DNA from: Camelus dromedarius
Lineage: Eukaryota
Assembly (NCBI RefSeq): GCF_036321535.1
Contig: NC_087436.1
Coordinates: 6,882,001 to 6,946,000, forward strand
DNA length: 64,000 nucleotides
Direction of reading: 5' to 3'
Part shown: positions 39,801 to 62,000 of the stretch, piece after piece
Position numbering within the stretch: the first letter of the stretch is position 1
Layout: the number at the start of each line of letters is the position of its first letter
Translations under genes and position numbers: made by a program
The notes under the pieces: generated by a model
Seen by the model: only the letters and a program-made list of their open reading frames with translations
What the model was told of the DNA's origin: nothing
Databases searched by the model: none

Positions 39801-39929
39801 CTATGAACACTCTATAATCTAATCTAAAACAAAATAAGAAAAATTGTCTCCCTCCTACATACCACTGTCCCAAAGTCTCTAAAAAGAGTTTATGTACTTG
39901 GGAGAAAAGTTGTGTAATCCCACGGCATA

Positions 39930-40470
39930 CTTTGATTTTTTTTTTTTAAATTAATTTAAGCAAATGGAGTCATTCTGTACTCACAGTTCTTGCCTTTCCT
40001 TGTAAATAATACTTCTGTGAGGTGGTCCCGAGTTCAGCCTCTTTCTGCTCCGCGCATCATCAGCTATGTTGGTGGTCCTCCCAGGGGTGGACCTTTGGGG
40101 AGTTTGCAGCGTCCTCGTCCCCTTACAAGTAGTGCTGTGGTCAGCATCATTATGCACGTGAGTATGTGTTTGTGCGTGCTGTTTGTGAACAGACAGATAC
40201 GATTCCTGGTAGTGGTTTACCAAACCTAGGGATATGTCGGTTAACAATTTGATAGGTAGTGCCAAGTGGCTCACTGAAAAAGCTGCTCCAGTTGTATTTC
40301 CATGAGCGGTGTGTGTAGAAATCCATGCCGCTGATGGCTTTTTATTAAACTTTCCCGATGTTGCCAATCTAAGAAGTGAAAAATTGTATCGCAGTGTTAC
40401 TAGATCACGTTTCTTTAATTCTGTGAAGTTGAGCTTTTTTCCCGTATGTTTGCTGGCTGGCATTGAAGGT
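39930..40470 (-). mobile_element. Highly diverged L1 (L1ME-like)
   Basis: aaatggagtcattctgtac...ttgccaatctaagaagtgaaaaattgtatc...gttgagcttttttcccgtatgtttgctggc. Confidence 0.65.
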
Positions 40471-42432
40471 GATTTTCACCCGTTTTACCTGTCAGTAAGA
40501 AATGATACCAAGTGGAGACAGGCTTCACGTGGTTCCTAGCACCTCAAAGGAGAAGTGCTAACATAGCGTCATGCAGTGTAACATCACAAAACAGTCTAAC
40601 CCAAGAGAAGTGCTTGTCTCAGTGCTGACTGGGGCGTCCGTGCAGAATGGAAGACAAAAAATTCCCTGTAAACTCCTGGATATGTGTGACCAAACATTTT
40701 TTCCACGTTGTGTCCATCTAAGATTATAGGAATAGTAATTCTTACTTTGTAGCAAAGAATGTTTTCTACAGCAGCTGAAATGTGTGACTTAACTTGGACA
40801 TTTATTTTTCTTTCGTAACTTTAAAAACAAAAAGAGATACCTTCATGCCATTCAGAACATGAAAAATCATGGTAATATCCTGTATTCTTTCTGTTTTGTT
40901 ATGATCAGAAGTTACTGGATTTACAGCTTTTACAAAAATGAGGAACATTTTTCTTATATGTAACGAATCCAGGTTGATTTCTGACAAAACTGATAAGCAA
41001 TTCATTTGCAGTATCTGAAAATAAATTATAGCATGGAAAAATCCGACTGGTACATTGGCAAGTAGAAGAACCAGATGAGCAAATATTTCATTTCTGTGTC
41101 TACATTTCATGAGTCAGTTTCACACAACAGCTGTTGTGGAGGCAGGATTGATCTACCAGAATACTTCATGGTTTATACAAAAAAAAGAAAAGAAAAGAAA
41201 AATAATATGGAATTTACTTGGCCATCAGAAGGTAAACTGAGCAAGTTTATCGCTAATAAATGAAAAAGATCGCTTAAAACATATAGTAGTTAAAAAGAGC
41301 CCGCCTTTTTTGGTTTCCACTGTCTGAGAGTTTTAACTGACAGAAAATGATGGCTAATTTTAAAAAGTTTCCTAGCTTATGAGTAGTGGCATTTATTGAA
41401 CCCTTGCTGTGTAAAACCGCTCCCCTGCATCGTGCAAAGCGGCTTGTCGGGGCTGGTGTGGGCTAAGGGCAGAGCTGGGTGTTTGAGTCCAGGGCCTCTG
41501 GTTCTGCAATGTACGTTCTCAAGCACTGAGTTCGACTGGACCCCAATTGTCTGGAGGAATACATGTGGCTTGTGCCTTGGGCATATACTGTTAAATAAGT
41601 ACCTGTTTATTTTAAAACATTAAAAAATTGTTCCCTGAGTACTTGTCAAGGATTAAGAAGAAATTGGTTCTGTCTGCAGTAAATACACATTTCTCCTCAT
41701 TTTGTTGATGAAGAATGTTGGTGTTGGTGCTGCTGTTGGTTCAGATCTTTATTTTCCCTTGTTTGGGTCCCAGAGAGGACGTGAGAACTCCTGCACCGCA
41801 TGGGCGCCCACAGAAGTGCGAGGGACATAGAAGTGCGTGTTGGCGATGTCTGTTTTTGCCATCTTACGGTATGCTCATGGAGAGTACATTTTCTGGCACA
41901 AAATATTCCGCTGGGCCTATACCTAGTTGATTAATAAAAGGAGAATTTGTGACAACCATCAGATATAATAGTTTGTCTTGACTGAGGGCTTGGATCAGAT
42001 TGTATACATTTTTTTTTTTTTTTACAGCAGAGGGACGTATATATGATGCAGAATTGCTCAGATTTTACATGGCTGCTTTAGAGCTGGCATTTGATGGGGA
42101 GTGAGTGACATGGAGTGGGTGTTTCTGGCTTTTTTTTTTTTTTTTTTTTTTTTTTTTTGATGGGCAGGGGCTTGTGGAGGAAGTATTTCTCTGATTCTGA
42201 ATAGGTGGCTCCCCTTTGGGCAGACCACGCTGTCACAGACACGTGGGGACCTTCAGCCACTCTAAGTGCAGACTCTGGGACCAGACAGGAGCATGGCACC
42301 AGGCCGTGTGGGTGGTGAGAGCAGAGCGCAGGCCGTACCGTCTGGTCCATTTGTTCAGGAAGTGATTTCACTGTGGCCACAGCCTGTCGGTCTTTTTTAC
42401 AGTCTCCTTCCCCTGTAATTCTTTTCTCCTCT

Positions 42433-42481
42433 GTGCGTGCGTGTGTGTGTGTGTGTGTGTGTGTGCGCGTGCATGTGTGTA
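42433..42481 (+). repeat. Imperfect (TG)n/(CG) microsatellite
   Basis: Seen directly. Confidence 0.9.
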
Positions 42482-43328
42482 TGACATGGAAACAGTGGAA
42501 CAGTGTGGGAAATGACCTTTAGTTTCCTTCTCTGGTCCCCTACTCCTCCTCTTGGAAGAGGACCCAGCACTGTTGAGAACTGGGTGGGTGTCCCTGAGTC
42601 CACGTTCTTCTTCGTTTACTCCGTATCTCCGGAAGCCATAGTTTGGTGGGTTTTCCCCCATGTATCATTCTGCAACTTGCCTTTTTCTCAGCCATGCTTC
42701 TTGCAGTCTCTTCATGTTGGTAGCTGTCTGGTTGGTGTGTAGAATTTCACAGTAGCACAGTTAATCTGGTTCCTTAGAAATGCATGTTTAGCGTGGTCTC
42801 CTGCTGTGTTTCTGTGTAACTCTTCCCATGTTGTTGAGCAGAGAAACTTAAATACTTGCTTGATTTAGTTTTGATTTGGCTGAAGCTGGGTCCTATGCTG
42901 TCATTAATCTGTTTTCTCATTCTCTCCGTTAGTCTCAGTTCATTTTATTATTTAAAAAAATCGTTTCAGTTATCCTCCAGCCATTCCTTTTTCTCACATA
43001 GGTGACCCAGTAGAACTGACCTGTGACCCGTATTGCACAGGCACCTGTAGCCTGGCCAGAGTCCGGGATGTTCTGGATGACCTTCGCAGAAGATTGTCAG
43101 TAACAAGCATTGCAATTGCAAGAAACCACTTGTCACGTCATAGTGGGTCTCGGATTTGCAGAGAGAGCCAAACTACACCCTTTTAAATACTTCTGATCAA
43201 GTTCCACTGATGACATCACTTGTTTCCTTATTTTCTCTTTTCTGATGATCACAGTACCGTTCAGAAAGTCCTGCTCAGGACTCAGTGTTCGCCTAATGCA
43301 ATTATCAAAATACAGGCTCTGTGTAGAT

Positions 43329-43621
43329 CAGTGCTGTCTGAGAGACGAGCCGCACGTGTGGTTTTAAATTTTCTGGTAGCCACATTAAAAAATGTAAAAC
43401 AAAATAGATGCCACGAATTTTATTTAACCCGTATATCCAAGGATATGTCATTTCAACATGAAAGCAGTGTAACTTACTGAGATATTTTACTTCTTTTCAT
43501 AGCAAGTCTCCAAAATGCAGTGTGCGTTTTACACTTTACAGCACATCTCCACAAGGACGCACCACGTTTCATGGATTCCACAGCCACCTGCGGTGAGTGG
43601 CTACCATATTGCATAGCACAT
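43329..43621. mobile_element. MER33-like hAT-Charlie element with 8-bp TSD
   Basis: Starts cagtgctgtc; internal ttttaaattttctggtagccacattaaaaa; ends tggctaccatattgcatagcaca. TSD gtgtagat (43321-43328) / gtgtagaa (43622-43629). Confidence 0.82.
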
Positions 43622-43654
43622 GTGTAGAAAATACAGTTTAAGAAGTATTAGTTG

Positions 43655-44060
43655 GCCAGCAAGATACCCAGATGGCAAGTAAACACATGAAAAGATGCTC
43701 CACAGCAAAGCTCCTCGGGGGATGTGAATTAAAACACCCGTGGGATTCCACTGCACACTTACTAGCACGGCCAAAATCCGGAACACTGACAACACCGAGT
43801 GCTGAGCGGGATGTGGAACAACAGGAACTTTCCTTCACTGCTGCTAGGAATGCAAATGGGGCAGCCACTTCGGAAGTCAGTGTGGTGCTTTCTCACAAAA
43901 TTAATACGCTCTTACTCACAAAGCGAATATACCCCAGCCACGGGATTCAGCAACTGTAGTCCTCGGTATGTGCCTAAAGGAGTTGAAAACGTAATTTCCC
44001 CACAAAACCCTGCACATGGATGTTTATAGCAGCTTGTCCTAAAGCTGCAAAAACTATCCA
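43655..44060 (+). mobile_element. Old L1 ORF2 3' fragment
   Basis: cagatggcaagtaaacacatgaaaagatgctc (MASKHMKRCS) ... cctgcacatggatgtttatagcagc. Confidence 0.85.
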
Positions 44061-45174
44061 AAAAAACTATTTCTTTTTAAGACACATTAATTACAACATT
44101 AATCTAATTTTTTTTTTCTTTTCTACATTACTGGTCTATTAACCGGTCTCTTTTTATTTGAAATGAAACATTAATGACTAATCATCATTGGGGGAAATTA
44201 TTTGCAACATTAAGGATACTATCTTTAAAGAACTCAGTAAGAAAGGCAAATGTATTAATAGTGAACGAAAGAAAAGGAAAAGTACAAAAACCCTTGGATT
44301 AAACAAATTTATTTCCTGCAGCATTTTTGGAGCCCTGGATTTTCAACTCTGCATTCCTGACTCTGCTGTGGGATGGAGTGGAGTATGTGTTCCCTAAACT
44401 GATGTGACTAGGCACCCCCTTTGCAAAAGCATCCTGGAGCGCACTCTGGGAAATACTGTTTTCAAGACAAACATAGAGCGCAGCAGAAGGAAAAAGGAGC
44501 TGGAATACCTACCCGTTGATTAAGAAGTAAAGTTGGCTCTTAAAATTATAATGTGGACATTTACAAAAATGCAAATTTAGTTGAAATTTCAGCTTTAGTT
44601 TTTCTTCTTCCTCCCCCATTCATCCCTTCTCTCTCTTGTTTTTTTTTTTTTCTTCCAACAAAATACTTTTATATAAATGATGAAAAACAACTAGGGAATT
44701 ATTCTGAATATTTTCCCCCTAAACAGATCATTTCTATGTGTATTGGTGATGTGAGTGCTCAAAAATTATGTTAAGTTTTAATGTGTTAGACAGTCCAATT
44801 TTGTAGAAACACTTACTAGAACAGAATTATTTAGGGTTGGGTAGGTTTGTCTCTTGTTTGTTTTAGAGCAGTCATCATCATAAGTTCATGGAAAAGTGGT
44901 TATCACAGAGAGATGTGACCTAGGACATAATTTTAAAACTTTATAAAATGTTGTAGCATGAACATTGTTCTAAAAGCAGTCGGTACAGGTGTCAGGTGTT
45001 GGATCTAGAAAATTCCCCTGTAATCTTAGTTCCTTCACTTAGAATATTTTGTTTTTTTGCCCCAGATTTTGCCAGTCCTAAAAGATTCGAGTAGTACTAA
45101 TTTTTTATGATCATTTATTTTTGTTTTTATTGTTATACTGTTACTGTTAGTAGTATCAGTGTATCTTACATTCA

Positions 45175-45775
45175 GGTAGTTATAGTCTGTAGAGATGTAA
45201 AGAACACTGAATTAGCAAATTCTGAACTATTGCTCCCAGGGGAGGTACACGGTTAGGGTCTTGCAAGCTTCTGGTCACATTTTCATCAACTGGTATAACC
45301 TTGTTTTACGTGTGTTTCTGTTTAAAGACACTTGCTCAGTATAGATTTTGCTACTGCACTAACACTGAACTCAGGGACAGCAGCGGAACAGAACACACCT
45401 GACTCAGGTGCATTCTCCCTGAGGCACCTCCCAGCCTTCCTGCCCTTAGGATCACTAGACAAAACTGCAGCATCTTTGGGGCCGTGAACAATGCGATCAC
45501 TAACGGGAAGCACAAACACGTGGAAACCAGGACACAGGATATTGCTCGTGAAGGATGCTGGTTTCCAGCGCAGGAACTGAAACAGGAGGGCATTGCCTCC
45601 TTCACCTCACACACCTTCTGGGACTGTGCACCAAGATGACTCACGTGTTCACCGCCCTGCACATGTCCCTGCACGACTGGGAAAGGGCGTCGAGTGTCGG
45701 ATTTGGGGCTGCACGTACATGTTCGCAAGTAGGCGAATTTACAAATGGGGACTCCCCAGTAACGAGGACCATGTG
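45175..45775. mobile_element. MER82-like TcMar-Tigger element
   Basis: attagcaaattctgaactattgctcccagggg...aaccttgttttacgtgtgtttctgtttaaagacac...gtaggcgaatttacaaat follows the recalled MER82 consensus. Confidence 0.8.
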
Positions 45776-47084
45776 CGTGTGGAGCGTTTAGGATGTGGCT
45801 CTGACCCGGAGGGTGTCAGGCTGCTGTCCAGCGCGCCGCCCATCCCTTCCGTCCCTTGCTCTTCTCCGTCGGGCCTCAGTCGGGGGGTGTGGTTGCTGCT
45901 GCTCTAGTCGGTGAGAAAAGCGGGATGTGATCAGGTCGCAAAGTCTGAGTGGTGAGCAGAACCAGGGCTTGTCTTCCTCCTGATTTTTTCGAGGGTTGGT
46001 GGCTGAATCCGAGTTCTGTACTGTGCTTTGGGAGTTACTGTCCTTTATGGTGGAAGCTGTGAATACTGCTTCCAAAGGTCGACCGCACCGTAGCAGCTTT
46101 AAAGCACTTTTGGTTGTGCTGTGTGGTTGTGGTGGTTTGACTTCTTTCCCCCCGTGATCTTACAGTTACTCACAGCTGCAGCCACAGATAGCAGCTTATC
46201 TACAGCGTCTAGTCTGGGTTGGTGCTGGTCATCTGATGTGGTAGGACACTGAACAGATGATTTGAATTGCAGTCAGATGACTAGTTTTCAACAGAGCACG
46301 TTTAACTGATTATTGAGAAGTATTTTGTTGTTGTTGTTGAGATTTTGAAATGGATTTAAAGGGGAGACTGAGTTTTTGAGGAAATCAAAGGACGTTTTAG
46401 GCACCTATTACAGATAATAGTTCAGTGCTGGGCTGGGGAGAAGGAATCTGAATGAGTAAGACCTGCTATTTCCTGGTTTTTAGGCGCTCACAGGATGAAA
46501 ACTATTGAGAAAAAGCAAAGAAAATAAGCCCCAAAGTGTTGTGGGCTTTTGGGGACGAGTTATTTTGGCTAGAGAGTCAGGTGCTTGGGGCAAGTGCGGT
46601 GAGAGGTAGGCTAAGGCAGGATCAGTTACTACTTTGTGCCACTACTTTTGGTAATTGTGTGTGTGTGTGTGTTTAACGTAGGCTGTCATCAAAGGTTCTC
46701 AAGTTCTGTGTTTCTGAAACATGACGATTGTGTGAAATTGATAGGCGGGGAAGACTGATGCCGTGGTGACGCCTTGGAAGAGGGGCAGGTCACGAGGTCT
46801 CGGCCGCAGGATGTCATTAAGGTGGGAGGAGAGCAAGTGGCTTTAAGCCCTCAGGTCTTTGCAGTGATGAATGTTTCTTCTCTCCTGGTCTGTAAGTCGT
46901 TCCCAAACTGGAACCCAGAACCCGGGATCCGGGGGCACCGTGTCCCTGGCCTGAACCTCTGATGTTCTTTTGCGATATTTTGTTCATTTATTTTTTTCAC
47001 CTGTGACAATGTAAGTTTTGGATTGATCTGTCCATGTGGATATGGTTCTTTCAAAAATAAATTTTTTTGTTCTTGAATAACTTT

Positions 47085-47245
47085 TTTTTTTATTTAAAAT
47101 ACTCTATTTACTTATTGTTGTATACCCGTATTTTTTGTTCTGGGGGTTCTAGGTTTATTTATTTTTAGAGGGGATGCTGGGGACTGAACCCAGGGCCTCG
47201 GGCATGCTGAGCACGCGCTCTACCACTGAGCCCTACCCTCCCCGC
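47085..47245 (-). mobile_element. vic-1-like SINE with extended tail and TSD
   Basis: Body ctggggactgaacccagggcctcg...ctctaccactgagc. TSD tcttgaataacttt (47071-47084) / tctggaataacttt (47246-47259). Confidence 0.88.
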
Positions 47246-47259
47246 TCTGGAATAACTTT

Positions 47260-48300
47260 AGATGAGAGGAGTTGGAAAGCTCCTGGTGTCCGCCCCTCTG
47301 CGTCCCTTCTGTCCTTACATCTTACGTTGCTGAGATTCACTTGTGAAACCGAGGAACAACACTGTGCGTTACTGTGACTAAACTGTCCACTTTCTTCCGG
47401 TTCCACTAGTTTCCCATGAATGCGCCCTCCTGTCCCCAGGCCCCGCCAGGACACCAGACCACGTCAGGACACCAGACCACGTCGGTCCTCACGTCTCCTC
47501 AGCCCCTTCTCACCTGTGTCCCTCACGCTCCCCTTGTTCCTTGGGACTTTGCAAGTTTTGGGGACTCAGGGTTATTTGGCAGAATGTCCCTCAGTGGGAT
47601 TTGTCTGATGTTCTTGTGGCTGTACTGCAGGCGTGAGATTCTGGGAGGGGGACCACGGAGGCAGAGTGCTGTTCATCATGCGGTACCAAGCCCGCATCCT
47701 AGGCGCCTGACTTGTCACAGGTGAGGCCGACCTTGTCCCCTGGCTGGTGTGGTGCTTCTCAGGTTCCTCTGCTATAGAGTTACGCCGGGCAGCTCTCCCC
47801 CCGTCTGTCCACACTCTGGTCTTTGGAAGCAAGTCATTCAATCCAGCCCATGCTCAGGGGGTGCGATAGGGGTGGGGACCTGAGCCCCATGCCCCGGAAC
47901 CATCTGTGTAAATAGTTTGGGATTCTCCTCTAAGGAAGATCACCTCTTCTTTCTCATTTATAATTCAATTATTTATGTCAGTGTGGGCTCAGATAAATGT
48001 TTTTTATTTTATTTTGTACTTTGGGGTATAATTTAAGAGGACATTATTTTATTGCTCTGAGTTTTCCGCCTTTTGGCATAGAAGCTCTTGTGGTTTTTTT
48101 TCCCTTGATCAATGGCTCTCTTTCCGGTACTCCTAAGTCTTGTGTTTTCTCACCTGTCTTAGAACCAGCCGTTTCTTTAAGGACCCCGGTTCCTTTTATT
48201 GGAGAAACTACGATCTGGGTGCTGGATGGGCTCCTTGCCCCTGGACTGTTTGCCCTTCTAGACCGTCTCCCCGGACAGAGCCGGTGTATAAATACATTTA
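47260..48300 (-). mobile_element. Old L1 3' UTR (L1MC/L1MD-like)
   Basis: gttatttggcagaatgtccctcagtgggatttgtctgatgtt...tttggaagcaagtca...cccggttccttttattggaga. Confidence 0.7.
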
Positions 48301-50904
48301 TACAGACACACACACAGGTGTAGTTCTTTGTATCAAGGGATTTGAATGTTCTCATGTGTGAAGCACATTTTGAAGTTGAAGTTATACTCCTCAGGCAAAC
48401 TGCCGTCTCTCTAGGCCCAGGGTTGAGTGTCTATAAATCCTAGAAGTAGATTAGACAGTGCTGTGAGGCACATATTTCCCCCAAAGTCTTCTCTTTCTCT
48501 TTCTTCTCTAAAGTTATTATATATTGATTACTGTTAACTCTTTGGGGATGAAAATCTAACCCATCTTTTTTGCTCTCTTCAAGAATAGTTTTTTTTCCCC
48601 CATAAGTGAAACATGTTTGAACACCTGGGGTTCATTCTGGGGTTTAGGAAGTTATAAGCTATAGGGTAGTTTCTTCTGCTGTTCAGTTTATTATGCAGAG
48701 GAAGTTCACATGCATGGATGGATTTCCACATTGGCCTGTGCACCCACTGTATTAGTATTTTTTCAGAAGAAGAGATATTTAAGCTGAGCAGTTAATCATC
48801 ATTTCTGAACTGTAAGAGCCTGTTAATGTTTTTCTAAATAAAAATAGAGAACTTTAATTTCTGGAGGAAGGCAGTTTCCCAACAATGTAATAGCATTTGA
48901 CTTAACACTTTCAGAAAGCTAGTTTTGGAAGTTATTTGCTGTGTTACTAGAATGACTTTGATCATCTTGTGACAGATGAGGGGGAGCCACAGACAAGCTC
49001 AGTGTGAACTGCTGTAAACACCTTGCAGGTGTTTTTCCTTTAAATAAAATTACCATTAGTGTAAGCATCACTATTTATATGATTTTTTATAATAAAAACA
49101 GGGAAATAATCCCAATATTATTGCCATCTTTCTGCTTCTTATCTTAATTACCAATTGGTCATAAATCGAAGCAGTAAACATCATCTCTGGTATTTGTGGG
49201 TTTAACAAATATTTTCAGAGCTGTGATAAGCAGCAGCATGGGCGGAACGCAGCAGAGGGGTTACAGCATTTCAGGTGCAGATTTATCTCATGTTGACCGC
49301 TTTTACCCTCTCTTCCTCAGGGTGACCGTTTATTAAAGTAAACTTGCCCAGACTTTCTGACATACTTTATACATCGCTTAAGTTTTATGTGTTAAAAAGA
49401 GCTAAGAAGTTGTATGATTCCATCTCCTTCCATTTTTCAGGTAAGAAGATTCCGCTCGGTGTAAGTGTGGTGTCTGTATCCCCCCAAATAGTCCACAGTA
49501 GGATCAGGAACAGGCTGTCCAGATACCCTGGCGTTTCCTCCAGTCCTTTCCCCCAAACTGTTACAGTGCAGTCTGATTTATTTTACATTTCATTGACCCT
49601 GTAACCCCCTTCTCATGTATTGTTGAATAAAAATTTGACCTTTTATTGAGCGAATTTTCGGGGCTGTTTGGCACGAGCCAGGCACTGCGCTTCGCAGTCT
49701 TACGTAGACTCTGTCCCTGAAGATTCATCAGAACGTTGTGCAGAGGCAGGTTAGGAAGCAGCGATTGAAAGCGTTTCATTTTTGTTGTGATTCATAACAT
49801 GATATGATTCATATCAGACTGTCAGACTTCAGGTATCTGTGGAATGGGGTGGACCGATGTTCCCAGATAATCTCAAAATGAGTTAATCTATTTCATTTGT
49901 GTTTACTAAGTGATCTAGGGTTTACAAAGCGCTGTGCAAAATGCGTATTTGCTGTAATGTGCATAAACACACTGTCCATGTATGGACATATATACACATA
50001 CGTATACATTTTGCAGTATGTTTATCTTAACTAACTTTGTAAGAATTGCTTAATATTAAAAATACATTTGTATTTTCTAAGACTCACTAGTTGGGAAGAA
50101 ATTGGCTTTTAGTTGCCTAATGGCAGAAAGTTTATGTGCACTGTTATTTAAAAATAATTCGCTTACTGAATGTAACGTGTCTCATTTTGCAAAGACAGGT
50201 ATTAAGGCTAATGATTAGTAAGCATTATGACAGAAGACATTTTATATTTTTTTCTGGCCTTGCCTAAGAAAAGATCAATCAGAATAAATACATCACGGTT
50301 TCAATTTTTTTGTTGCTGTTTTTATTATTTTGGCGGGGTGGGTCATGGTGGACAAATTACAGAGTAACATGAATTAACAGGGAAATCTTGTAAAGAAGAG
50401 AAAAGTTAGATCCAACTCTAGGGTGCTTTCATATTTGTAAAAAGGTACAGAATCTCATCTTTAAGACTTTTATTTTCACCATCAATCATGGTAGGAGATT
50501 ATCGAGAGGAAGTTTCTTTGGTTTGTCATTGTGAGGTCTCGTGAGAATATTTGTTGATAAGAGAAAGTTTGGGAAATTAAGAAATTACCACTGGACTCAT
50601 GTGTTTCTGGCCAATCTTTAGAGGAGTGTTGTATGTCGAAAGTGTGTTCTCGGCTCAGCCTGTCTTCTGTGTTCGCTGTCTGATTTCGGATTGTTGGCTC
50701 TCAGGTTGGCAGTGAGTGTTTGAATGCTTGTTATATGCCAGTTTATTCTCACTCTTACATGAGTGAATCACTATAGCTTTTCAGTAAATTACAATCACTA
50801 GCCCTTATGAGCATTAAAATTACCTGGTTCAGTGGACACGAGTTGACTTAGGTACAGAATTTGGGAAGTAGCTTGACCCTAGTGATCATCTGCTTCTTTT
50901 GTAT

Positions 50905-51050
50905 ATTGGAAACATCTGGGGACTTTTAAAAACGACTTGAAGTCCCACACCAGAGATTCCGATTTAATTGATTTGGAGTGTGGCCTTGGCGCCTGACTGC
51001 TGAAAAGTTCTCCCAGGTGATTCTGATGCAGTCAAGTTTGAGAGCGCTGC
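50905..51050. mobile_element. MER5A-like hAT-Charlie element
   Basis: cccacaccagagattccgatttaattgatttggagtgtggcc...tcccaggtgattctgatgcag...tttgagagcgctg. Confidence 0.8.
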
Positions 51051-54000
51051 GACAGTTCCTCATTCTTACTGAACAAGATACAAGACCCAGACTTACTAAG
51101 TGATTTCTACTTTGAGGATCCAGAATCATGAATAAAGTTGGTGCATTTAGTACGACTCTTACAGGAGATGTCCATACTGGTGGCTTTAATAATTCAGAAG
51201 TGTAACCAAAGATCGGGAGTCTCGTTGCCTCTTTAGCTGAGCTCTTGATGGCTTTCTAAGGTGAGGACTTTGAATATCAGCACAGGAGTGGCTAGATTTT
51301 CTCTGGCCTGCATAGCATTTCCTTCTCTGCCCTTGCATTTTTTTTTTTTTTTAACTTACTGAAATCAGGTCTTCACTTTTTTTTTTTTTTTTGGGAAAAT
51401 GTCCATTCCTTGTAAATTATTTATATAATTCTTGTAGGCTGTTCAAGAAAGGGTACTGGGAAAATTTGTGGTTGTGTTGTTTTACATGAACCCGCAAATC
51501 AGCTAACCTTACGTTGGGAAGCACACGTCTCGGCGCTTGACGTGGTGGGAGCTCAGTTTGCATGTGAGTGAGCAGGTGGAAGACTGGGTCTAATGTTTAA
51601 ATGTGTTTCTGCCTCTAAGTCCATAAATGCTGTAGCTTGTAAGGACCTTTGCGTGACTGACCGACTAGATAAGGAATCTGATGTTCAGTAAGTTGATTAA
51701 GTTCTTTAGGCTTCATTTTCCTTCTAAAGTGAGGGGTTGGTTAGATCCTGGCATTTTATGGTTCTGTGACCATAAACACAGGGCAGCCTAACTGTAAGTG
51801 CACGGTGGTCTGGCCTGTCTCCCGGAAGTGCCGTGGAGAGCTTGTCTTAGCCGGGTGATGCGGGTGGTCCTTCAGAGCCAGTGGGACTCAGTTCCCGGAG
51901 CAGTGGCAGGAGCACTTCCCGGGCAGGTGGGACGTGTCCCTCCCTGCACGACTCCTGAGCATCCTCAGATGGAAAGGACCCTCTTTTATTATTGCCTGAC
52001 TGGAACTGTCTTACGTGTCTGTTTCCATCTTTTCAAGTCCTTTCACTCATAGCGATATCCTTGTGCTGTAGGGACTGCATTCTCCTGGTGTGTGGAAATC
52101 ACATTACAGTCACGTTCTTATGTCAGCTCTCATTCCACTCATTTGCTTCCATTATTTCCTGTGTTTCTAATTCAGATTGCCTCGGAAAGTGGTGACAGCG
52201 TGTAGCATCTGAGAAAGATCAAGTGATCAGCGATTAATGTGTGGCCACGTTAATGTACCGGGTGATTTGTACAGCAGATTCTCCAGAGATAGCTGAGTTA
52301 GTGATTGACTAGGGAGATTTTAGGATTCAGAGAGCCTCAATTTAACCATTCTTAAAAAACACATCTGGAATCAAAGACCCACAGGGAATCAGCGATTCTC
52401 ACAGGATCTCAGATAGGTTTGCTTCCAGTCTCAGATTCCTTTCCCGTCACTTCAGAAGAATTTTACGTTAGACCAAGGAGGTGGAGACAGATGCTTTGTT
52501 CTGATAGTACTATGTGAGGGTGCCCACGTGCCATGGTTACAGTCACCAGTATAACCCGTTATAAACATATAGCACACACTGCTGCTTAGTCACTTACATA
52601 TTTATTTAAAGCAATAATTTTTAGGGTTGAAACACTCAGTATTATTAAGAAAAACGGGTATTTGAAATTTAGATATCCTATAACTTCCATAACATAAACC
52701 ACAGAAATTAACATGGGAAAACATTTAGCTGATGTGGCTACAGTGATTCTCAAATTGGAAATAGGGGACAGCCTTAAACCAGTGGGGGAGACAATGAGAT
52801 TTTTAACTTTTCCAAAAGTGCAGGGTGGCGGGGTGGGGGGTGGAGTTGAGAAGCTTGGCACTTAAAGCCAATGTGGAGTTCCAGCTGAGCAGTTTTAATT
52901 TTCCATTTTGATTGACAATCAGCCTCTTGTACATTCTTTATTTCCTCTTCCTTGTTTTGACAAGATCTAAGAGGATTAGAAAATTGAATGTTTAAGCATT
53001 TCTTCTTCTCTTTGGCCTTGAACAAAGGTGAGAATGTTTAATAATATAATTCTCTCTCGAGAAGAAATGCATTTAATGGAGAAAAGATAATGGCGTCTTT
53101 GTGAGGAAAGTTTCTGGGTGGAGGAGCACGGCAATGTTTTCTGCTCCTCTGGCAGGACTATTCCTGAGCATATTTAAGTTGTTCTCCAACTGAATTGACT
53201 GTTCAGAAGAGGGGAAACTCCTGGTATCAGTTTGAGCAATACTGCAGAAGACGTAGCAGTTCTCAAGTGTGTCTCGATTCCTTCTCAAGGAAGAGAGGAG
53301 TGGGACTCTCCTGTCTCTCACAGACCTGTGTCGTTTAATTAGTAAATGCATCCTCATGCTTCAAAGTTGGTTCATCTTGGGAAGTGAGAGCAGGGTGATT
53401 GGTCTTGAAAAACAGCGACTATTTTGCTTGTCGTGTGATTGTTACAAAGTGTAGGTGAGCTAAATAGTTACTTTGAAGACCGTCACTCTGTAACCTCCTT
53501 GCTCTGAAACCTTTGAGAAAGGTCTCCTTACTTAAAATAGAGAGGCACATGTTTCAGTCAAAAATTTATAATATCAAGTCAAATTATTTTTTGTTGATAA
53601 TTTCCCCTTCGTGGTTCTACTCACTTCTTCCCAAGATGCAAGCCTGAAATGAAGCCATCGTCCAAGTTCAGTTGTTGGAGTCAGTAGCGTCATTCTCACC
53701 TGTTGAGAACTGCTGTCTTCTCGAGCTGTGCAGATGTGAAGAGGTAGGCAGGATGGCTGTGCTTGCTCTTGGCTTAGCACCGCTCTGTCTGTGTGACGTT
53801 GGTGAAGTGCAGTCCAGTTGAAATGGTGATTGTGTTCATTATGAATATAAATGAGAGTTATTCATAATAAAGGTAGGTAAGCACAAGCAGAAAGCATTCT
53901 AAGCTTGAAATTTAGGCTAACCTAGACTTAAAAGAGAACCGGAATGTCCTTGACAACCAGCTTGGGGCAGGGGGTAGGTGCTTTAAGGAAACCGCTCCAT

Positions 54001-54144
54001 CTCACGTCCCGGGGAAGGGGTGCGCGTAAACCTAACTTGGAAACGTGAGACCTGATTTTACCCCCAGGACCCTGAATTAGCAGAGGTTGGGAGAAAGGAC
54101 CAAAATTTATTCTGCGTGTGTTATGTTGAAGACATCTGATTTAT

Positions 54145-54680
54145 CATGATGGTTAAGGGTGCTCGATTATCTCCATTTATGAGTTGTGTGGCCTTGAGCA
54201 AGTCACTTCCCCTTTCTGAACTTACCTACTTGTGAAACAGGAGCTGGTGAGAGGACCTACTCGTTGGCTCCTTTGAGGATTGAAGATGACCCTTTTCAAG
54301 CAGGTGGCTTTTATGATTTTCACGCTGTCGAATCTAATATTTGAGTTTGAATGATGCCTCATTTTATCTTGGGAAGAGCTGGGTGGAGCTGAGGAGAAAT
54401 TATAAACGAATAATTCAAGGTACGCATTTTTGATTGATTAAAAAGAATAGTTAGAATCGTGTCAGGTACAAGGTAAGTGCTCAGATGTGTTAGTTATTTT
54501 ATTAATGGTAGACCTGTTTCTTGCTTAGTTATAATGGTGAGACTGAATTCATTATTACCCCCTTTTATAAATGAGACTCAGAGACTCAGAGAAGTTTGTT
54601 GATTTGCTTCTTTGTGGGAAAGCGGAGATTGAAATCCAGGTCCTCAAATTCCCAAGCCAGGCAGGTTACCGCGCTCCAGT
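54145..54680. mobile_element. MIR cluster (plus copy about 54145-54300, minus copy about 54530-54680)
   Basis: gttgtgtggccttgagcaagtcactt (plus) and ttttataaatgagactcagagactcagagaagtt (minus). Confidence 0.7.
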
Positions 54681-55089
54681 GCGCTACATGTCTGTCTTCC
54701 TAAAGGACCAACAGGTACTTACCTACGTTTATTCCAGACGTTTAGGTGGGAGCTCACTGTGACCATGAAGACATCTTCTGCCGACGTTTTCTGTTTCGCT
54801 GGTTTCTGGCACCTTCGGTTATTTCTGGCACGGTATACTATAGCAGTAACACTGACTTACTGTAAACACAAACTGAGATTTTTATATCCTGCCTGGAAAA
54901 CTGCAGCTCCGCCATCATAGTGCCACCTGACACTGTCTGATGGGCAGGGACAGTGGGCATTAGGTGCTTTTGACAAGGAACACAAGTGCACACAGTAGGA
55001 AGCCAGTGAGTCCTTCCGGTGTTCCCTTATTTCTGTTGTCCCCAAACTCATCTAATGACAAGGATTGCTTGATGGAGGGGAGGGCAGGT

Positions 55090-55200
55090 TCTGCTTTTGA
55101 GAAATGCAGATGCCTGGGTCCCCAGAGTTTGTGGTTAGCACAGCTGGAGAGGGGCCCAGCACCTGTGTTTGAGAAGCTCCCTGGGGCTCCGACGGTCAGT
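55090..55200. mobile_element. MER5-like fragment
   Basis: aaatgcagatgcctgggtccc...ggggcccagcacctgtgtttgagaagctccctgggg. Confidence 0.6.
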
Positions 55201-58200
55201 TAATTAGGACCCGTTTCCCCACTCGGCGTGGAGCTTGGTTCCTTGGCTGTTCACTCTCCTGGGCTGGTCAAGGTTGGAGGTGAGGAAAAGAAATCTCCTT
55301 ACGGAGCTTCCTGGAATGCAGACGTCAGTAAGCAGGGGCAGGCTCTGTATCCCAGGAGCAGCTTCGCCCTCGGCTGGACGGACCTCTGATGGTTGTAGTT
55401 GAGCGAGCCTGAGTGAAAGCACGATGTGACAGCAGGACCAGTGCTGGCCCGGGGGGCGCACCAGCACCGCGGCGGGAGGGAGGGGGCACTGATGTCTGCA
55501 CCTGCGCTTGCGGGGGCTCCTTTTACTGCTAAATGGTGAGCTTATCGCAGTCTCCGCTTTCCGGTTTGCGAATCGTAAGCCTGTGTGTGCCCCTTTCAAG
55601 TGGTTTCTAGGGTTTCAGAGTTATGCCTTGGACTCAACTTGACTTTACCTGTTTGCCAGGATGAGTGAATGGCTTCTTAGAAGAACAGGTTTAACCAGGT
55701 TACCAGTTTTGTTTCACTTGTTATCTGTAATCTATTGGTGAAAAGGAATTCTTCACTAAGCCCATTTTTTTTAGGATGGAGGGGAAACTTAAGAGAGGAC
55801 CTGAAGTTTTGTATTGCAGTGGCCTTCCTGGTCCATTACCGTGTCAGCTTTTCCACTTGGAATTTTAAAAAGAGCCCCACATAGATCTGCTGCTGGAGTT
55901 TCATTCTGTAAGAAACGAGTCGCCTTTCTGGTCACAGTCCCTTGAGCAGTTGAAGCCGTGCCGTCCCCTCTTTCCTTCCCTCTGATGGCAGTGGCAGTGG
56001 TGAGCAGGTGGGGCAGGGAGCCGGGGGTCTGGGGGAGTCAGGGCATGGCACAAGGCAGAGGCAGCAACAGCGAGGTGTCATGAAATTCTGTGGTGGAAGC
56101 AGCAGTGGTGCCTGAGGTCGTTCTGTTTGAAAAGTTGATTCTCCCAGACGCTTGTTCCCCTTCTTTGTTTACCTGTAGCATTTCGGAGTTATACTGAAAG
56201 TTGATAATATTTTTTTTCTTAAGGGAGATAGATATAAGCTAAAAAGTCTTAATGGTTTTTATTCTTAAGAGAGTGTTGCATTTTTGCCAGAAGTGGGCAG
56301 AGAGAAGGTTCCTGTTTACTCCCAGCTTCCTTGGCTCCCCACCTACCAGCACATTCTAGGGGCTGCAGTTCCGGGCTGTTTTAGCCTTCATTGTTCTCCT
56401 CATCTGGCAAAACATTATTACCTAGGTGCAAATATAGACACAGATACAGGCTATACTTGGACAAGAAGCAAAGGAAAGCGTGTAACTGTCCTTTGGTTTT
56501 CTGTCTTGTGCCCTGAGCCTGGGAGACTGTCTAGTTAATCTTCAGTCTTCCGGGAGGGCGGCACCTAAACCACCTTTATGGGAAGCCCTCCAAAGGTCAT
56601 CAGACGTATCCAACAGTTTCCTACTTAAATTTCTCTTCTTTTAAGTAGAGGACACTTGTCATTCACAGAGTTCCTTATTAGGCATTTTGTGCCAATGTCC
56701 TTGTCCTTGTGGAGAGGAAAAAGTTAAGTACCAATGGCAATCCTTGGTGGTGGCCAAAAAAAAACATGCAGTCATTCAGATGAACATCCAAAGTGTCTTG
56801 AGACGCACACAAGACTAAGTCTTTTCAGTGTGCTCATTTTGTATAATTTTAATCTTACTGAGAACGATGAAATTTTACCAGCAGTATTTGCTAAATTGGA
56901 CTTGGGATCTTGAAGGAACCAGAATTGTCATTGGCTACCTGGCTGGAAGGTTTCAGTCTTACTTGGCATGGTGGAGCCTGGCTAATCTTTTTTTTTCCCC
57001 CTTAAATTTGAAATAGTGGCAATGGCTGTACACTAGCCAATGTGTAAGTGCTTTTTGTAACTTCCTTGGTCTTCACAGCAGCCCTGGAAAGTAGGTATCG
57101 GCTTCCGTTTACGTATGGTGGAGCTGAAGCATGGTAATAGCTTGAGTTGTTATGTAACTCGCCCGGCATCTCACAGCAGTGACTAGCGAAGTCAGGACCG
57201 AAGCTAGGTCCCGATGCTGGAACCTTTCCTCTGGATTGTTGCCCTCGGCCACCCCTGTCGTTTGCAGTGCCTGTTTGCAGTATCTCCTTCAGCCTTTCTC
57301 TTTTGGGATCATTGCAGCTGTTTGCACCACCCTCCTTCCATTTCACAAACCAGAATTCATAAATTCAGATTCCACTGTATGGCAAAAGTGGCCAGGTGAC
57401 GTTATTTATTCTCTTAAGGAAAAATTTGTTGCCCGAATCTGTGTGGGGAGAATTCTTTCCTTTTGACTTTAGGACTCGTAACGGGGTCAACGGATGGAGA
57501 TCTCCAAGAAAGCCAGGCTCACTGGTGTTCTTACTGTCCAAAGGTCTGTTAAAACGGAGATTGCAGAATCCAGCGTGACCACTGCACGATTCTTCATGTA
57601 TATCTTATGGCAAATTAAGTTAGAGGCATTATAGTTCCTAGTCTGAGAATTTTTTAATGATCTGTTATTTAAAAAGGATATGTGTACCCTGGCTGGGTCA
57701 TGCTGGAACAACTTAATGATTTATCAACCCATTCATCACCTTCCATGGTTTATTTTGTTCTCTTGTTTAGTACTTTCTCATGGCTTGAATAATTTTGCTC
57801 CTTGAGAAAAAATTAGCAGAATGTAAGAATTTCGCAACCTGGACTCTTCACTGGAAGTGTGGAAGTGAGTGCACCACAGTGATCTCAACTCGTGTGGCAG
57901 CAGCCCAGTCCTGGGGGGACGGGAGCAGCTGCTTCCTTTTTCTTAATTTAGGAGGAATGAACTCTATTGTTGTCAGGTCACCAGGGAATGCTCCTGTGGG
58001 AAAGTGTGAGACAATTATACCAGGTATTATTTATTGATCTCCCTCTAACCAAACTTTTATTAATCTGCAAGGAAGGAGAAGCTCTTCTAACACCTAAGTA
58101 TGAGAGGACGCATTGGACTCACAATAATTACACACTTACATTCCTTTTTCATTTAAAAGGGTTTTTTTTTTTTTCCATGAAGAAACTACGTTTGGCTGAC

Positions 58201-58761
58201 ATTACATTCGTGTTCTAGTTGGGCAAAGACTTTAAAAAGTCTTTTGTGTCAGATAAACTGTAGATGACATGTGTCTGTCTGTGCTCACGTTAAACTGGTG
58301 TTTATTCCATGACACGTACCCTTTACTGATGGATTCTCCCGTGTTATTTCCTGTCAATTTCTGGTAGTCATGCATCTGCGTGAAATGTTAGCAATAGCTA
58401 ATTATTTAGGCAGATTTAGTCTTCTCTCAAACCCAATGAAGAATCTGCTTTTTGTCCTTATTTAACAGATGTGGAGAGTTGAGGAGTTTACCCAGGTCAC
58501 ACAGCCAGGAAATGGTAAAACTGAGCCTCAAACCCATCTCTTCTGATTTTAAAGCACCCCCCTCCCCCAGTAACACAGGGGTGCCCTGCAGTGTTGGGAC
58601 TATGGCTAGAAGGTGTTCATTTATCTCAGTAGCACACGCATGAGGTGTATATCCTTAATACGGCACGTAACTTACCCTTTTCTATGTGCAACAAGCTATA
58701 TGGATGGGCATCTGCTGTTTTGTGCTTTAAAGCAATGACTCCAGAAGGAAGTGGACTCGAT

Positions 58762-58867
58762 CTTTTAAAAATTTTTATTTATTTTTAAATGTAGGTACTG
58801 GGGATCAAACCCAGGACCTCTCACGTGCTGAGCGCGTGCTCTACCACTTGAGCTATGCACGCCCCCT
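58762..58867 (-). mobile_element. vic-1-like SINE
   Basis: aggtactggggatcaaacccaggacctc...ctctaccacttgagcta, flanked by tggactcg / tggacttg. Confidence 0.87.
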
Positions 58868-61129
58868 GGACTTGGTGTAAGTGAGCTTGAAAGCGTGCTC
58901 TCTCTGTCTAAGCCTGTAAGTCACCTTTTTCTCTTTCACAATAAAACGTTTTGAGTGAAAGGCAGGAGTTCATACTCGAGTGGGTATTACTTATCCATAT
59001 TGAAGTTTAAATGGTAAAAATACTGCAACAATTTCTGCTCTAATTTGCCCTATGCTGTATTTTCAGTCTTCTGCTAATTCCTTGTGATCACGTATTTGGG
59101 ACTAATTAGAAGTTAAAGTTCTTTAAAGCTATAGGTTTTGAATACACAGACGCTTTTGATGAAAGGTAATATACAAATAATATGAGAAAAGAGGAAATGA
59201 AAGGAAACAGAATAGCTACTTGAATGAGGACAGTCTTTCAAGGATATGGTTTTTAAAAACCTTGGATATAATTTAAAAAAATGGATTGTTGTGTAGTATA
59301 TTAAACATTTTGAGATTAAAAAAAATTGTTCTCAGGAATTGGTTACTTAATGTGAATTGAAAAGTCCTTTAGGAAAATTGAGCTTTGTAGTCGATTTCTT
59401 CTGTGATATTGGGTTCAGAAAGCAAGTGGTTAGAAGAGATCCTAACTGTACTGGAAGTAGTTTTCTTTTAAAATAGTTAAATTGTATTTTCAGAAGTTTG
59501 TATGAGACATAACTTGTAGCTCCCTTGTAGTTTCTCTTCCCGCAAAAGTGTTCTTTGAATTGAAAGAAATACTTTAGATTGGGGTGGCAGTTCTGATAGT
59601 TTGTTAATCATAGCGCTACATAATCTTATCTTGATACATATTAAATTTGTGGTTAGGTTTGAATAAATCAGGAATGGCGATCTCATTCAGGAATCTAAGG
59701 GTTGCTTCATAGAGGCATTTAAGACTTGTTTTTTGAGAGCTAGAGTAATTTAGATTATCTCGCAGATACGTTCTAAACTTTCATCATTTAAAGCATGCAT
59801 CAGAAAATCCTGGAGCGAAAAACCCTCAGAACAGCATGTTAACAGCTGTAAACCTTCCATCCAGCTTATTTTTATGCTCTTAACAAATTTTTAAATGTTT
59901 ATTAAAAATCTAGGTCTCTATATATATTGAAAAAAGTTTGTGATAACTATCATAATTGTTACAAGAAAATAATTTTCAACTTCCAGGGAAGCATATTCTT
60001 AAATCTTTGCACTTAGAGTTCAGGTTGTTTGCATACATGAACAAACCTGGACCAGAACCTACGAAAGCCCCACTCACCCCTGCACATCACGCCTCCAGCC
60101 CTCACAGGAGCCCCTGAGCGCCTTGCGGGTGTCCTCTCCCTTAGCCCCACAGGGTCGGAGACCACGCTGGGGTTGGGCTGGCCTGCGTGGCGCGTCAGAG
60201 TGCACACGTCAGGAGGCGCTTCTGTTACTCCTGGTGGTGCTCTGTCTCATGTGGCCCCTCAGCGAGGGAAGAAGTGGGTGAAATGTCAGCGTGTAGGCAG
60301 TGGACTCTAACTATGATCATCTTTTTCTTACCTGCCGCCTCTTAACTCCCAGGGACCTCCTCAAATAGGCATTTCTCCTGGTCTGTGCACCACCTGCTGA
60401 GCTGTGTCAAATAATTCTTTTTTTTTTTTAATTAAAGAAAATTTGTACCATGTTATTCCAGAAAAGTTAACTACTCAACATTTATTCCTGCTAGAAGATG
60501 GGAGTGCTCGAAGCAAATGTCTGTTATTTTTCAGTGCTGGCAAAAAGGTCTTTTCTGCTCAGTTAATTTTGTGTGTTAAGTGATCATTGTACCTATTTTA
60601 CAGATTTCTAAAACTGTGGTGGAGTTTCCTTCCCCCCAAAACCCCAGTAACTCTATTCTCCATATAATGAGAGTTAATCGTGAGACACGATTTCATTGTG
60701 AAGTGTAAACACTGGATGTTGAATAAGCACTTTATCGTGATGGTGAATTAGCTGTGGTCACTTGTGGGAGCTAACTTTACTTTGGGGGGGGGTAATGGTT
60801 GTTTATGTTGATAGAACAATGCAAATACAGAATGATGGTAGTTTGGTAAAAATGAAGAGAGCATTCAAAATGTAAAGTCCTTATTATTTTCAGTTTCCAG
60901 AATTCATTTTTTTATCTTCAAAACTTTTTTCAGCATTATTGAGGTACAGTTGGCGTATAAAATTATAAGCTATTTGGTGTATGGTGTGGTGATTTAATGT
61001 ACATACACACTGTGAAAGGACTTTCCAACCAAGTTAACACATCCATCATCTCACAGACTTACTACCGTTTTTGGTGGTGGTGTTTAGAATATTTAAATTC
61101 TACTCGTAACAAATTTCAGCTGTCTAATA

Positions 61130-61629: not shown

Positions 61630-61922
61630 TACAGTGCCGCACATCCTCAGACTTTGTCCGTCTTCTAACTGAAAGGTTGTACCTTTTACCGACCTCCCCC
61701 TACCTCCCCCACCCCAGCCCCTGGCAGCCACTTTACTACTTTGTTTCTACCTGTAAAACACAGCACGAGCTGTTTTTATCTTTCTCTGGCTCATTTCACT
61801 TAGCATAAAGCCCTCCAGTTCACCCACATTGTTGCATATGACAAGATTTCCTTCTTTTTAAAGGCTGAATAATATTCCACTACATACATGTGAAAAGAAT
61901 ATCACATTTATGATTATGTGTA

Positions 61923-61996
<74 letters not shown>
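61923..61996 (+). repeat. Compound (TG)9(TA)28 microsatellite
   Basis: Counted directly. Confidence 0.93.

Positions 61997-62000
<4 letters not shown>

Follow-up and report, generated by a model that had tools for sequence, protein, structure and literature searches.

Composite AG|GT junction in the first intron of RAPGEF2

The window, the whole 64,000-nt stretch of Camelus dromedarius DNA analysed here, carries the beginning of RAPGEF2 on its + strand. The encoded N-terminus and exon 2 both match RAPGEF2-type proteins, bearing out the name given to the gene in the initial annotation, and 76 of the 84 listed RAPGEF2-type proteins holding the exon-2 motif join the exon-1 N-terminus straight to the exon-2 sequence. 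The exon-2 motif does not occur inside the 64-kb window; exon 2 was located in the DNA downstream, giving intron 1 a full length of 64,310 nt (12616 to 76925, in coordinates continued past the window). Approximately 195 kb of the gene is covered between exon 1 and the most distal exon identified, and its 3′ end lies further downstream. The exon-1 donor reads cag|GTGAGC and scores 11.5, and exon 1 is surrounded by a CpG island (GC 0.60-0.62; CpG observed/expected ratio 0.73-1.04). The flanks of this upstream donor are CpG-rich, and the acceptor tract of intron 1 itself has no CG. All splice-site scores reported here come from a weight matrix (PWM), not from a trained model. The features under discussion, all on the + strand, are the following.

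12547..12615, + strand: RAPGEF2 exon 1, coding part, MASYVDNSFRQAVMKNPAERTPQ; phase 0, ATG at 12547, ends CAG
12616..64000, + strand: part of RAPGEF2 intron 1 that lies in the window; exon 2 located in downstream DNA
49402..49418, + strand: branch-point-like pentamers CTAAG and ATGAT, with A at 49405 and A at 49417
49418..49440, + strand: acceptor half, pyrimidine tract TTCCATCTCCTTCCATTTTTC plus cAG; tract 49418-49438 (19 of 21 positions pyrimidine), AG 49439-49440
49441..49446, + strand: donor half GTAAGA, read directly; CAG|GTAAGA with either the genomic or the exon-1 CAG
49441..49460, + strand: putative RS-exon, the 20-nt interval between the two donors
49461..49466, + strand: second donor GTAAGT, context ggt|GTAAGTg, PWM score 5.6
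49626..49631, + strand: AATAAA, at 185 nt past the acceptor, with a T/GT-rich stretch after it
L003:2926-2996 (downstream DNA, beyond the window), + strand: RAPGEF2 exon 2, DLEIVYSYLHGMEALSNLREHQLR

The initial annotation had placed a candidate recursive splice site about 37 kb into intron 1. With exon 2 positioned downstream, this location holds: the junction lies 36,825 nt into the intron, 36.8 kb from exon 1. Direct reading of the letters likewise confirmed the proposed arrangement of a pyrimidine tract and AG followed by GTAAGA at 49441, with a second donor, GTAAGT, 20 nt later at 49461. The further claim that ligation of exon 1 would rebuild a donor also stands, since exon 1 ends in CAG at 12615 and the site begins with GTAAGA, giving CAG|GTAAGA.

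Both halves of the junction score as well as the real splice sites of RAPGEF2. The acceptor half reaches 13.0, more than six of the seven real RAPGEF2 acceptors scored, and only 5 of the 4,473 AG dinucleotides in intron 1 score at least 13.0. The donor half scores 11.2, a value matched by only 3 of 4,293 GT dinucleotides in the intron, and the 11-mer at the site is identical to the real donor of RAPGEF2 exon 6, cag|GTAAGAAG. Branch points follow the consensus yUnAy and keep a usual distance from the AG. The two candidate branch-point A's lie 35 nt (49405) and 23 nt (49417) before the G of the AG, CTAAG and ATGAT each miss one consensus position, and no AG occurs between 49410 and 49438. The site has the sequence features of a vertebrate recursive splice site, namely a strong acceptor fused to GT and a strong rebuilt donor. 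These results are consistent with a genuine recursive site at which intron 1 would be removed in two pieces of 36.8 and 27.5 kb, a reading that we regard as possible but rather unlikely. In such a case, binding of U1 to GTAAGT at 49461 would help to define a tiny exon, exon 1 would first be joined to 49441, and the rebuilt CAG|GTAAGA would then outcompete the second donor, whose rare use would add 20 nt and lead to nonsense-mediated decay.

Strength of the junction relative to chance

To place the composite motif, all 2,102 AG|GT junctions in 264 kb were ranked (1,139 on the + strand and 963 on the − strand). The candidate came first by the sum of the two scores, by their minimum, and by both halves. 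The initial annotation had called it the strongest AG|GT junction on the sense strand, which is correct and, with the PWM, extends to both strands over the 264 kb. Its nearest rival lies in the same gene on the antisense strand, at continued coordinate 85445, and scores 11.8/11.2. The heptamer AGGTAAG by itself is no more frequent than chance would give: the 64 kb contain 6 copies on the + strand and 7 on the − strand. As a null model for the composite, 264 kb of sequence were simulated forty times with a Markov-1 model. On average, 0.075 simulated sites matched or exceeded the candidate in both halves, and 0.2 did so by the sum of scores, per 264 kb per strand, which corresponds to an expectation of approximately 0.02-0.05 such sites per intron of 64-kb length. 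The candidate site is therefore unusual for a single intron, and both its rank and the strength of its halves, which equal or beat the real splice sites of the gene, argue for the recursive reading and against a chance pairing of splice signals.

The same simulated rate, however, implies that chance alone would produce hundreds of equally good sites on the sense strand of introns across a 2.3-Gb genome, and a near-equal site is already found on the antisense strand of this gene. The top rank is also partly a selection effect, because the candidate was chosen as the best of its window. A first rank among the AG|GT motifs of 264 kb is, alone, no evidence of use. These base rates favour a chance origin. 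The explanation that we prefer, to which we give roughly even chances of being correct, is that the junction is a sequence-competent but unselected and largely silent pair of pseudo splice sites. Ordinary intronic pseudo splice sites and pseudoexons similarly show good consensus deep in an intron with no annotated exon; the candidate differs from them in its position at the very top of the local scores.

The second donor, the 20-nt interval, and their surroundings

The second donor (5.6) is the best donor within approximately 300 nt downstream and is weaker than the rebuilt donor (11.2), a relation reported for efficient recursive splicing that speaks for the recursive reading. On its exon side (ggt|) it is non-consensus, which counts against that reading. 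The hexamer GTAAGT occurs only 21 times in intron 1. Donors scoring at least 5.6 occur at 3.67 per kb in the intron, with a chance of approximately 31% of finding one within 100 nt; since an equally good donor is expected that often, the second donor adds little, and its near-chance presence speaks for a pair of pseudo-sites. A short UG-rich run follows the second donor (4 TG in 49461-49480).

Joining exon 1, the 20 nt, and exon 2 shifts the reading frame, as the initial annotation had stated, and produces a premature stop that begins 11 nt into exon 2. Uninterrupted reading from 49441 runs into TAA at 49462-49464. The frame effect fits a recursive site whose RS-exon, when included, would trigger decay. 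An exon of 20 nt gives little room for exon definition. The interval is far shorter than the examples in the studies consulted, and this weighs against recursive use; those studies describe 51-nt Ubx microexons and sought downstream donors within 100-350 nt. On the other side, one human recursive-site catalogue recognises a category of downstream exons of <25 bp. A stronger version of the proposal appears quite improbable. In it, the site would be used regularly and be specific to the lineage, its RS-exon, defined by two donors 20 nt apart, would rank among the shortest known in a vertebrate, and the choice of donor would set the decay fraction of the exon-1 isoform.

These stops also bear on another reading, which we consider improbable, that the junction is the acceptor of a cryptic or poison exon that is missing from the annotation and is spliced into a minority of transcripts, where its premature stop would lower RAPGEF2 output. 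Such an exon might comprise just the 20 nt or extend further, for example over 309 nt to cag|GTTAGG at 49750, and protein binding at the pyrimidine tract or the UG-rich run may keep it repressed under normal conditions. The acceptor is strong, and every reading past 49441 ends in a stop, either the TAA at 49462-49464 or the exon-2 frameshift. A cassette exon in this intron would have a precedent, because 1 of the 120 listed RAPGEF2 relatives, a cat RAPGEF2 isoform (P0049), carries an insert between exon 1 and exon 2. However, when the cat insert and 6 other alternative N-termini were compared with the first 80 kb, only exons 1 and 2 matched and all other hits had E > 0.3, and no cassette exon at the site was found among the annotated protein isoforms of the 120 listed relatives. 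The latter result is in line with a silent pair of pseudo-sites. Moreover, every downstream donor is much weaker than the one that directly adjoins the acceptor, which would favour skipping of the exon. SRRM4-type neuronal microexons have a UGC after the pyrimidine tract and before the AG, and a length that preserves the frame. The interval does not resemble them, as 49410-49438 contains no TGC and 20 nt is not a multiple of three, and a neuronal microexon was rejected on these grounds.

The AATAAA at 49626, 185 nt past the acceptor and followed by the T/GT-rich stretch, could in principle mark an intronic terminal exon that yields a truncated polyadenylated transcript and would normally be suppressed by U1 bound at both donors. 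The + strand of the 64-kb window holds 51 copies of AATAAA, about one per 1.25 kb, and one within 200 nt of any position would often be expected. We therefore rejected this copy as a poly(A) signal on account of its chance-level frequency and, with no other support found around it, consider a terminal exon very improbable.

The surrounding DNA was also compared with repeats, structured RNAs, and other sequence collections. Stretches of 321 nt and 2,201 nt around the site match only themselves in the 2.3-Gb assembly, and no repeat family covering the site was found in the part of the window from 40 to 60 kb; the site could still derive from an old, diverged transposon. No Rfam family matched at the site, and the predicted fold of 49380-49520 was no better than that of shuffled sequences (z = +1.11). 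CpG enrichment at the site was considered and rejected, as the observed/expected ratio of 0.53-0.61 (window median 0.33; 90th percentile 0.57) is equalled in many windows. Searches of metagenome contigs with the site patterns gave 0 matches and then 4 chance matches without similarity in the flanks. Among 24 sequencing runs listed, five recorded as RNA contain a fraction of 0.48-0.72 of the sampled words from 44441-54440, a result that is uninformative on use of the site; three raw-read RNA runs bear the label of the same species.

Recursive-site catalogues and the preferred explanation

A recursive site in RAPGEF2 intron 1 is absent from four catalogues, which cover human and mouse only. Supplement files 1-12 of the 15 in Zhang 2018 hold one RAPGEF2 row, which belongs to another intron and is the only row between the neighbouring genes in the position-sorted table. 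The annotation behind Zhang 2018 may have lacked the long RAPGEF2 isoform. In human, no conserved putative site is catalogued upstream of the first exon of the short isoform, an indirect and caveated hint against conservation. Neither the 4 files of Hoppe 2023 nor the 8 files of Moon and Zhao 2022, some of whose lists may exist only as figures, contain a RAPGEF2 intron-1 site. Table S1 of Bass and Salzberg 2026 lists one human RAPGEF2 site, at chr4:159,256,604 (hg38). It resembles the candidate in lying in the same gene and in an intron of approximately 60 kb, but its intron, 62,973 nt long, is not intron 1; the site lies 15,235 nt into it. The corresponding intron here measures 59,033 nt and separates the exon that ends in GYHT from the one that begins with LPADFTK. 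Assuming a constant coordinate offset, the human 62,973-nt intron and the 36,126-nt intron of Zhang 2018 would end at the same 3′ position. The literature searches found nothing that pairs recursive splicing with RAPGEF2, and of four papers in which RAPGEF2 occurs together with a cryptic exon, the one examined holds an unrelated co-mention; both results weigh against the poison-exon reading. The absence from all four catalogues counts against a recursive site and for the preferred pair of pseudo-sites, with the qualification that these negatives come from human and mouse and not from Camelus dromedarius.

Published base rates for motif-only candidates are low, which again counts against recursive use, and the strict catalogues are small, as the preferred explanation would have it. 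In the mouse cortex study, 20 sites were obtained from 1.15 billion reads, corresponding to <0.06% of transcribed long introns. These sites lie in introns >51 kb, 75% of them first introns; intron 1 (64,310 nt) exceeds this floor. The study also reports that 46 of 84 AG|GT candidates with junction reads were unannotated exons, and it describes 22 further RS-like cryptic exons, findings that speak for a poison exon. In human cells, 16 saw-tooth sites were found among 36,870 putative ones, and the largest human set has RNA support for only 3,022 of 1,674,568 motif-plus-SPLAM candidates. Against the preferred explanation, recent studies report widespread recursive use, including these 3,022 human sites and targeted assays that found junctions even among introns predicted to be non-recursive (25 of 86). 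A long first intron with CpG-rich donor flanks and an acceptor tract lacking CG is, moreover, a setting reported to be prone to recursion, a point in favour of a genuine site.

The candidate shares several properties with the vertebrate recursive sites, with cryptic RS-exons, of brain-expressed genes such as Hs6st3, Cadm2, and Lsamp (Sibley et al. 2015, as represented in citing texts), including the YAG|GTAAG motif, a long tract, a long first intron, a rebuilt donor stronger than the downstream donor, and a premature stop upon RS-exon inclusion. Those sites, as the citing texts describe them, are defined by junction reads, saw-tooth patterns, and high conservation, and the RAPGEF2 candidate by its sequence features. 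It also differs from the mouse set, whose genes are >294 kb, in that approximately 195 kb of RAPGEF2 is seen (with the 3′ end beyond) and its RS-exon is only 20 nt. Drosophila ratchet points with short cryptic RS-exons (Ubx, kuz) have a comparable architecture of an acceptor fused to a donor with a second donor usually <100 nt downstream; they belong to a different lineage, however, and are numerous and efficient (197 sites versus a cited 10 in human). In mammals, the exon junction complex is reported to repress rebuilt donors.

Under the preferred explanation, a good acceptor, with its branch point, tract, and AG, would happen to adjoin a good GTAAG donor in the middle of intron 1. Most transcripts would probably remove the intron without a stop at 49441, because the surroundings give the spliceosome no exon definition; the sole downstream donor in reach, at a distance of 20 nt, has a weak exon side. 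If used, the site would act as an occasional and inconsequential intermediate stop at which exon 1 is joined to 49441. The rebuilt CAG|GTAAGA, which far exceeds the second donor in strength, would then be joined to exon 2, and the mRNA would show no sign of the detour. From these considerations we infer silence or near-silence of the site, and the absence of selection on it.

On its sequence, the site remains an ordinary candidate recursive motif. If it were used, it would be one more recursive site beside catalogues that already hold tens to thousands, and it would provide a test case of how an interval of 20 nt flanked by two donors can be defined as an exon. RAPGEF2 acts as a Rap exchange factor in neurons, and sporadic ALS has been linked to a de novo variant of the gene. 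Given this neuronal role and disease link, a decay-coupled switch in the long isoform would, if true, be of some interest.

Position and sequence of the site in RAPGEF2 intron 1

The initial annotation had placed a candidate recursive splice site with a 20-nt RS-exon in RAPGEF2 intron 1, about 37 kb from exon 1. Mapping exons 1 and 2 confirmed this position, since the intron is divided by the site, at 36,825 nt from its start, into pieces of 36.8 and 27.5 kb. Exon 2 and later exons were located in 200 kb of downstream DNA, into which the window numbering is continued (264 kb in total; L numbers denote pieces of this DNA with their own local numbering).

RAPGEF2 exons, continued coordinates
12547-12615, + strand: coding part of exon 1, MASYVDNSFRQAVMKNPAERTPQ, from the ATG; donor CAG|gtgagc, in a CpG island
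76926-76996, + strand: exon 2, DLEIVYSYLHGMEALSNLREHQLR
About 93.7, 122.8, 125.0, 184.2, 198.3 and 207.2 kb: later exons

Because exon 1 ends at 12615, exon 2 starts at 76926 and the two are paired in relatives, intron 1 spans 12616-76925 (64,310 nt). With the fifth-exon product (56 residues) as query, 668 of 670 candidates qualified as relatives at E <= 0.001, and the full-length ones carry the source name rap guanine nucleotide exchange factor 2. Among the matches listed, the exon-2 motif was found in 84 of 120 relatives, directly preceded by the exon-1 ending in 76 of these 84. A set of short motifs matched no further RAPGEF2 coding exons inside the window. Long GCC/GGC triplet repeats (12375-12416 and 12462-12483) lie within the CpG island, just upstream of the start codon, and a run of about 14 C (about 12643-12656) follows just past the exon-1 donor.

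The tract, the acceptor and both donors were present as originally described.

Elements of the site
49405, + strand: A of the branch-point-like pentamer CTAAG, upstream of the tract
49417, + strand: A of the branch-point-like pentamer ATGAT, upstream of the acceptor
49418-49438, + strand: pyrimidine tract TTCCATCTCCTTCCATTTTTC (21 nt, 19/21 pyrimidines)
49439-49440, + strand: acceptor AG, directly after the tract
49441-49446, + strand: donor GTAAGA, abutting the AG
49461-49466, + strand: second donor GTAAGT (ggt|GTAAGTg), 20 nt past the first donor start

The two pentamers were judged by the branch-point consensus and its usual spacing, and AG is absent from 49410-49438. In sequence, the composite at 49418-49446 has everything that a vertebrate recursive site requires, which gives such a reading partial support. 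Two constitutive RAPGEF2 coding exons also start with GT after the acceptor, cag|GTAGAC (L008:952, continued 124952) and cag|GTTACA (L016:3238, continued 207238); they share the layout of annotated RS-exons, although the donors rebuilt there would be weak.

Strength of the composite junction against chance

The heptamer AGGTAAG occurs six times on the + strand and seven times on the - strand of the 64 kb, and alone it is not above chance at the site. We scored every AG|GT on both strands of the 264 kb using hand-set weight matrices (acceptor -20 to +3, donor -3 to +6), which makes the scores relative only. With 13.0 (acceptor) and 11.2 (donor), the site ranked first of 2,102 junctions (1,139 +, 963 -) by sum, by weaker half and by both halves, in agreement with its earlier description as the strongest AG|GT on the sense strand. 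Within intron 1, site included, the acceptor score was reached by 5 of 4,473 AG and the donor score by 3 of 4,293 GT. In forty runs of a first-order Markov model, each simulating 264 kb, junctions that scored as high in both halves averaged 0.075 per run (0.2 by sum), and the expectation from simulation is about 0.02-0.05 such chance sites per intron of 64,310 nt. The site acceptor scored higher than six of seven real RAPGEF2 acceptors (10.9, 11.9, 11.7, 5.5, 13.3, 9.1, 2.5). Its donor is identical to that of exon 6, cag|GTAAGAAG, and among eight real donors (11.5, 10.3, 4.8, 7.8, 10.2, 11.2, 7.7, 5.8) only that of exon 1 scored higher. Top rank, low simulated rate and scores on a par with real RAPGEF2 sites make the composite locally exceptional, its rank carrying a selection effect because it had been flagged as the best site in its window.

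By our own extrapolation, the simulated rate implies that the introns of a mammal carry several hundred chance sites this good on their sense strand. The runner-up, ...ttccattttacag|GTGAGA (11.8/11.2; L004:1445, continued 85445), lies on the - strand in the second RAPGEF2 intron. This antisense junction acts as a natural control: motifs of nearly the same strength arise without any tie to RAPGEF2 splicing.

Repeat origin was rejected, as the surroundings (321 nt and 2,201 nt) each matched only themselves in the 2.3-Gb assembly and the site falls outside all local repeat families; an ancient transposon origin is possible. Five tRNA-like Rfam matches (29.5-56.7 bits) lie elsewhere in the window.

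tRNA-like matches
16968-17039, - strand
24355-24427, + strand
33932-34003, - strand
47169-47240, - strand
58790-58862, - strand

Two of the five belong to the same 66-nt repeat family (74% similarity), and all are most likely tRNA-derived SINEs rather than tRNA genes; tRNA-derived repeats are in keeping with a mammal. Five RNA-recorded libraries, each below 1 Gb (four labeled transcriptomic and one metatranscriptomic, all reproductive-system samples), contained 0.48-0.72 of the words sampled from the purely intronic stretch 44441-54440, which suggests heavy pre-mRNA or DNA content.

The second donor and other exon readings

The second donor scores 5.6, the best within about 300 nt downstream, and its exon side, ggt, is non-consensus. 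Donors scoring at least as high occur at 3.67 per kb across intron 1, giving a chance of 31% within 100 nt and 7% within 20 nt; the exact hexamer GTAAGT is rarer (21 in intron 1). At these chance rates, the second donor adds little to the case for the site. Readthrough from 49441 meets TAA at 49462-64. Joining exon 1, the 20 nt and exon 2 gives a stop that starts 11 nt into exon 2, with many junctions still to follow a long way downstream, so the frameshift predicted for second-donor use holds. Stops well upstream of later junctions usually target an mRNA for nonsense-mediated decay, and this product would therefore be such a target.

The 20-nt interval does not resemble a neuronal microexon: these exons have TGC between tract and AG and a length that is a multiple of three, and here TGC is absent and 20 is no such multiple. 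It is improbable that the acceptor belongs to a cryptic or poison exon. The rebuilt donor scores far above the second donor (11.2 versus 5.6), and in the published model a stronger rebuilt donor favors clean recursive removal over exon inclusion. An intronic terminal exon opened by the acceptor could use the AATAAA at 49626, but this hexamer is present 51 times on the + strand of the window, and we rejected this reading as very improbable. In the cat isoform P0049 the parts from exons 1 and 2 are separated by 27 residues, and other N-termini occur in seven proteins among the matches listed; these map nowhere in the first 80 kb except exons 1 and 2, arguing against a coding cassette exon. A structured RNA was likewise rejected (no Rfam match at the site; fold not unusual, z = +1.11). 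Of two pattern scans of metagenome contigs for conservation, the first had no hit and the second gave four chance matches, none of them similar in the flanks.

Recursive splicing catalogues and the standing of the site

No paper with both 'recursive splicing' and RAPGEF2 was returned by a literature search. Zhang et al. 2018 tabulate by position 36,870 putative human sites (AG|GT, MaxEnt acceptor >= 5, PhastCons >= 0.5, UCSC Known Genes introns >= 5 kb). Among the rows listed, RAPGEF2 has just one, for an intron of 36,126 nt, and no other row stands between the neighbor genes; the annotation used may lack the long isoform. RAPGEF2 is absent from the junction-read-supported lists in supplement files 1-12 of 15, and no RAPGEF2 site was found in the four supplementary files of Hoppe et al. 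2023. In mouse cortex, 1.15 billion nuclear-RNA reads gave only 20 sites (Moon and Zhao 2022), and Rapgef2 was not found in the eight files of that supplement, where some lists may be figures. Bass and Salzberg 2026 list 3,022 human brain sites, one of them in RAPGEF2, at 15,235 nt from the start of an intron of 62,973 nt (Table S1). Assuming a constant offset between assemblies, the 3' ends of these two catalogued introns coincide.

Camel counterparts of the catalogued introns
L010, near 3480-3536 (close to 147.5 kb continued): MKPLATPANHGVTGQQEKHS (MKPLATPANHG...), alternative first coding exon, some 36.6 kb ahead of the LPADFTK exon
L008:1120 to L014:152 (continued 125120-184152): 59-kb intron, counterpart of the human catalogued-site intron

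The LPADFTK exon is preceded, at a distance of 59.0 kb, by the exon that ends in GYHT. Because 36.6 and 59.0 kb match the 36,126-nt and 62,973-nt human introns, respectively, the human site belongs to the long isoform's fifth intron rather than to intron 1. The 59-kb camel intron has sense-strand AG|GT junctions of moderate quality at 130868, 143127 and 148880, possible counterparts of the human site.

According to Wang et al. 2026, recursive use is common in first introns with a CpG-rich upstream donor, and a targeted assay finds it even in 25 of 86 predicted-negative introns. The RAPGEF2 exon-1 donor is CpG-rich like those of the introns prone to recursive use there, which points in favor of the site. 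Motif quality and sequence prerequisites thus uphold part of the original recursive-splice reading, but the base rates speak against it, as do the catalogues from human and mouse; regular recursive use is unlikely. The probability left by this and the other readings named here falls to some further explanation. We see about an even chance that the site is an unselected pseudo-site, either silent or giving only splicing noise.
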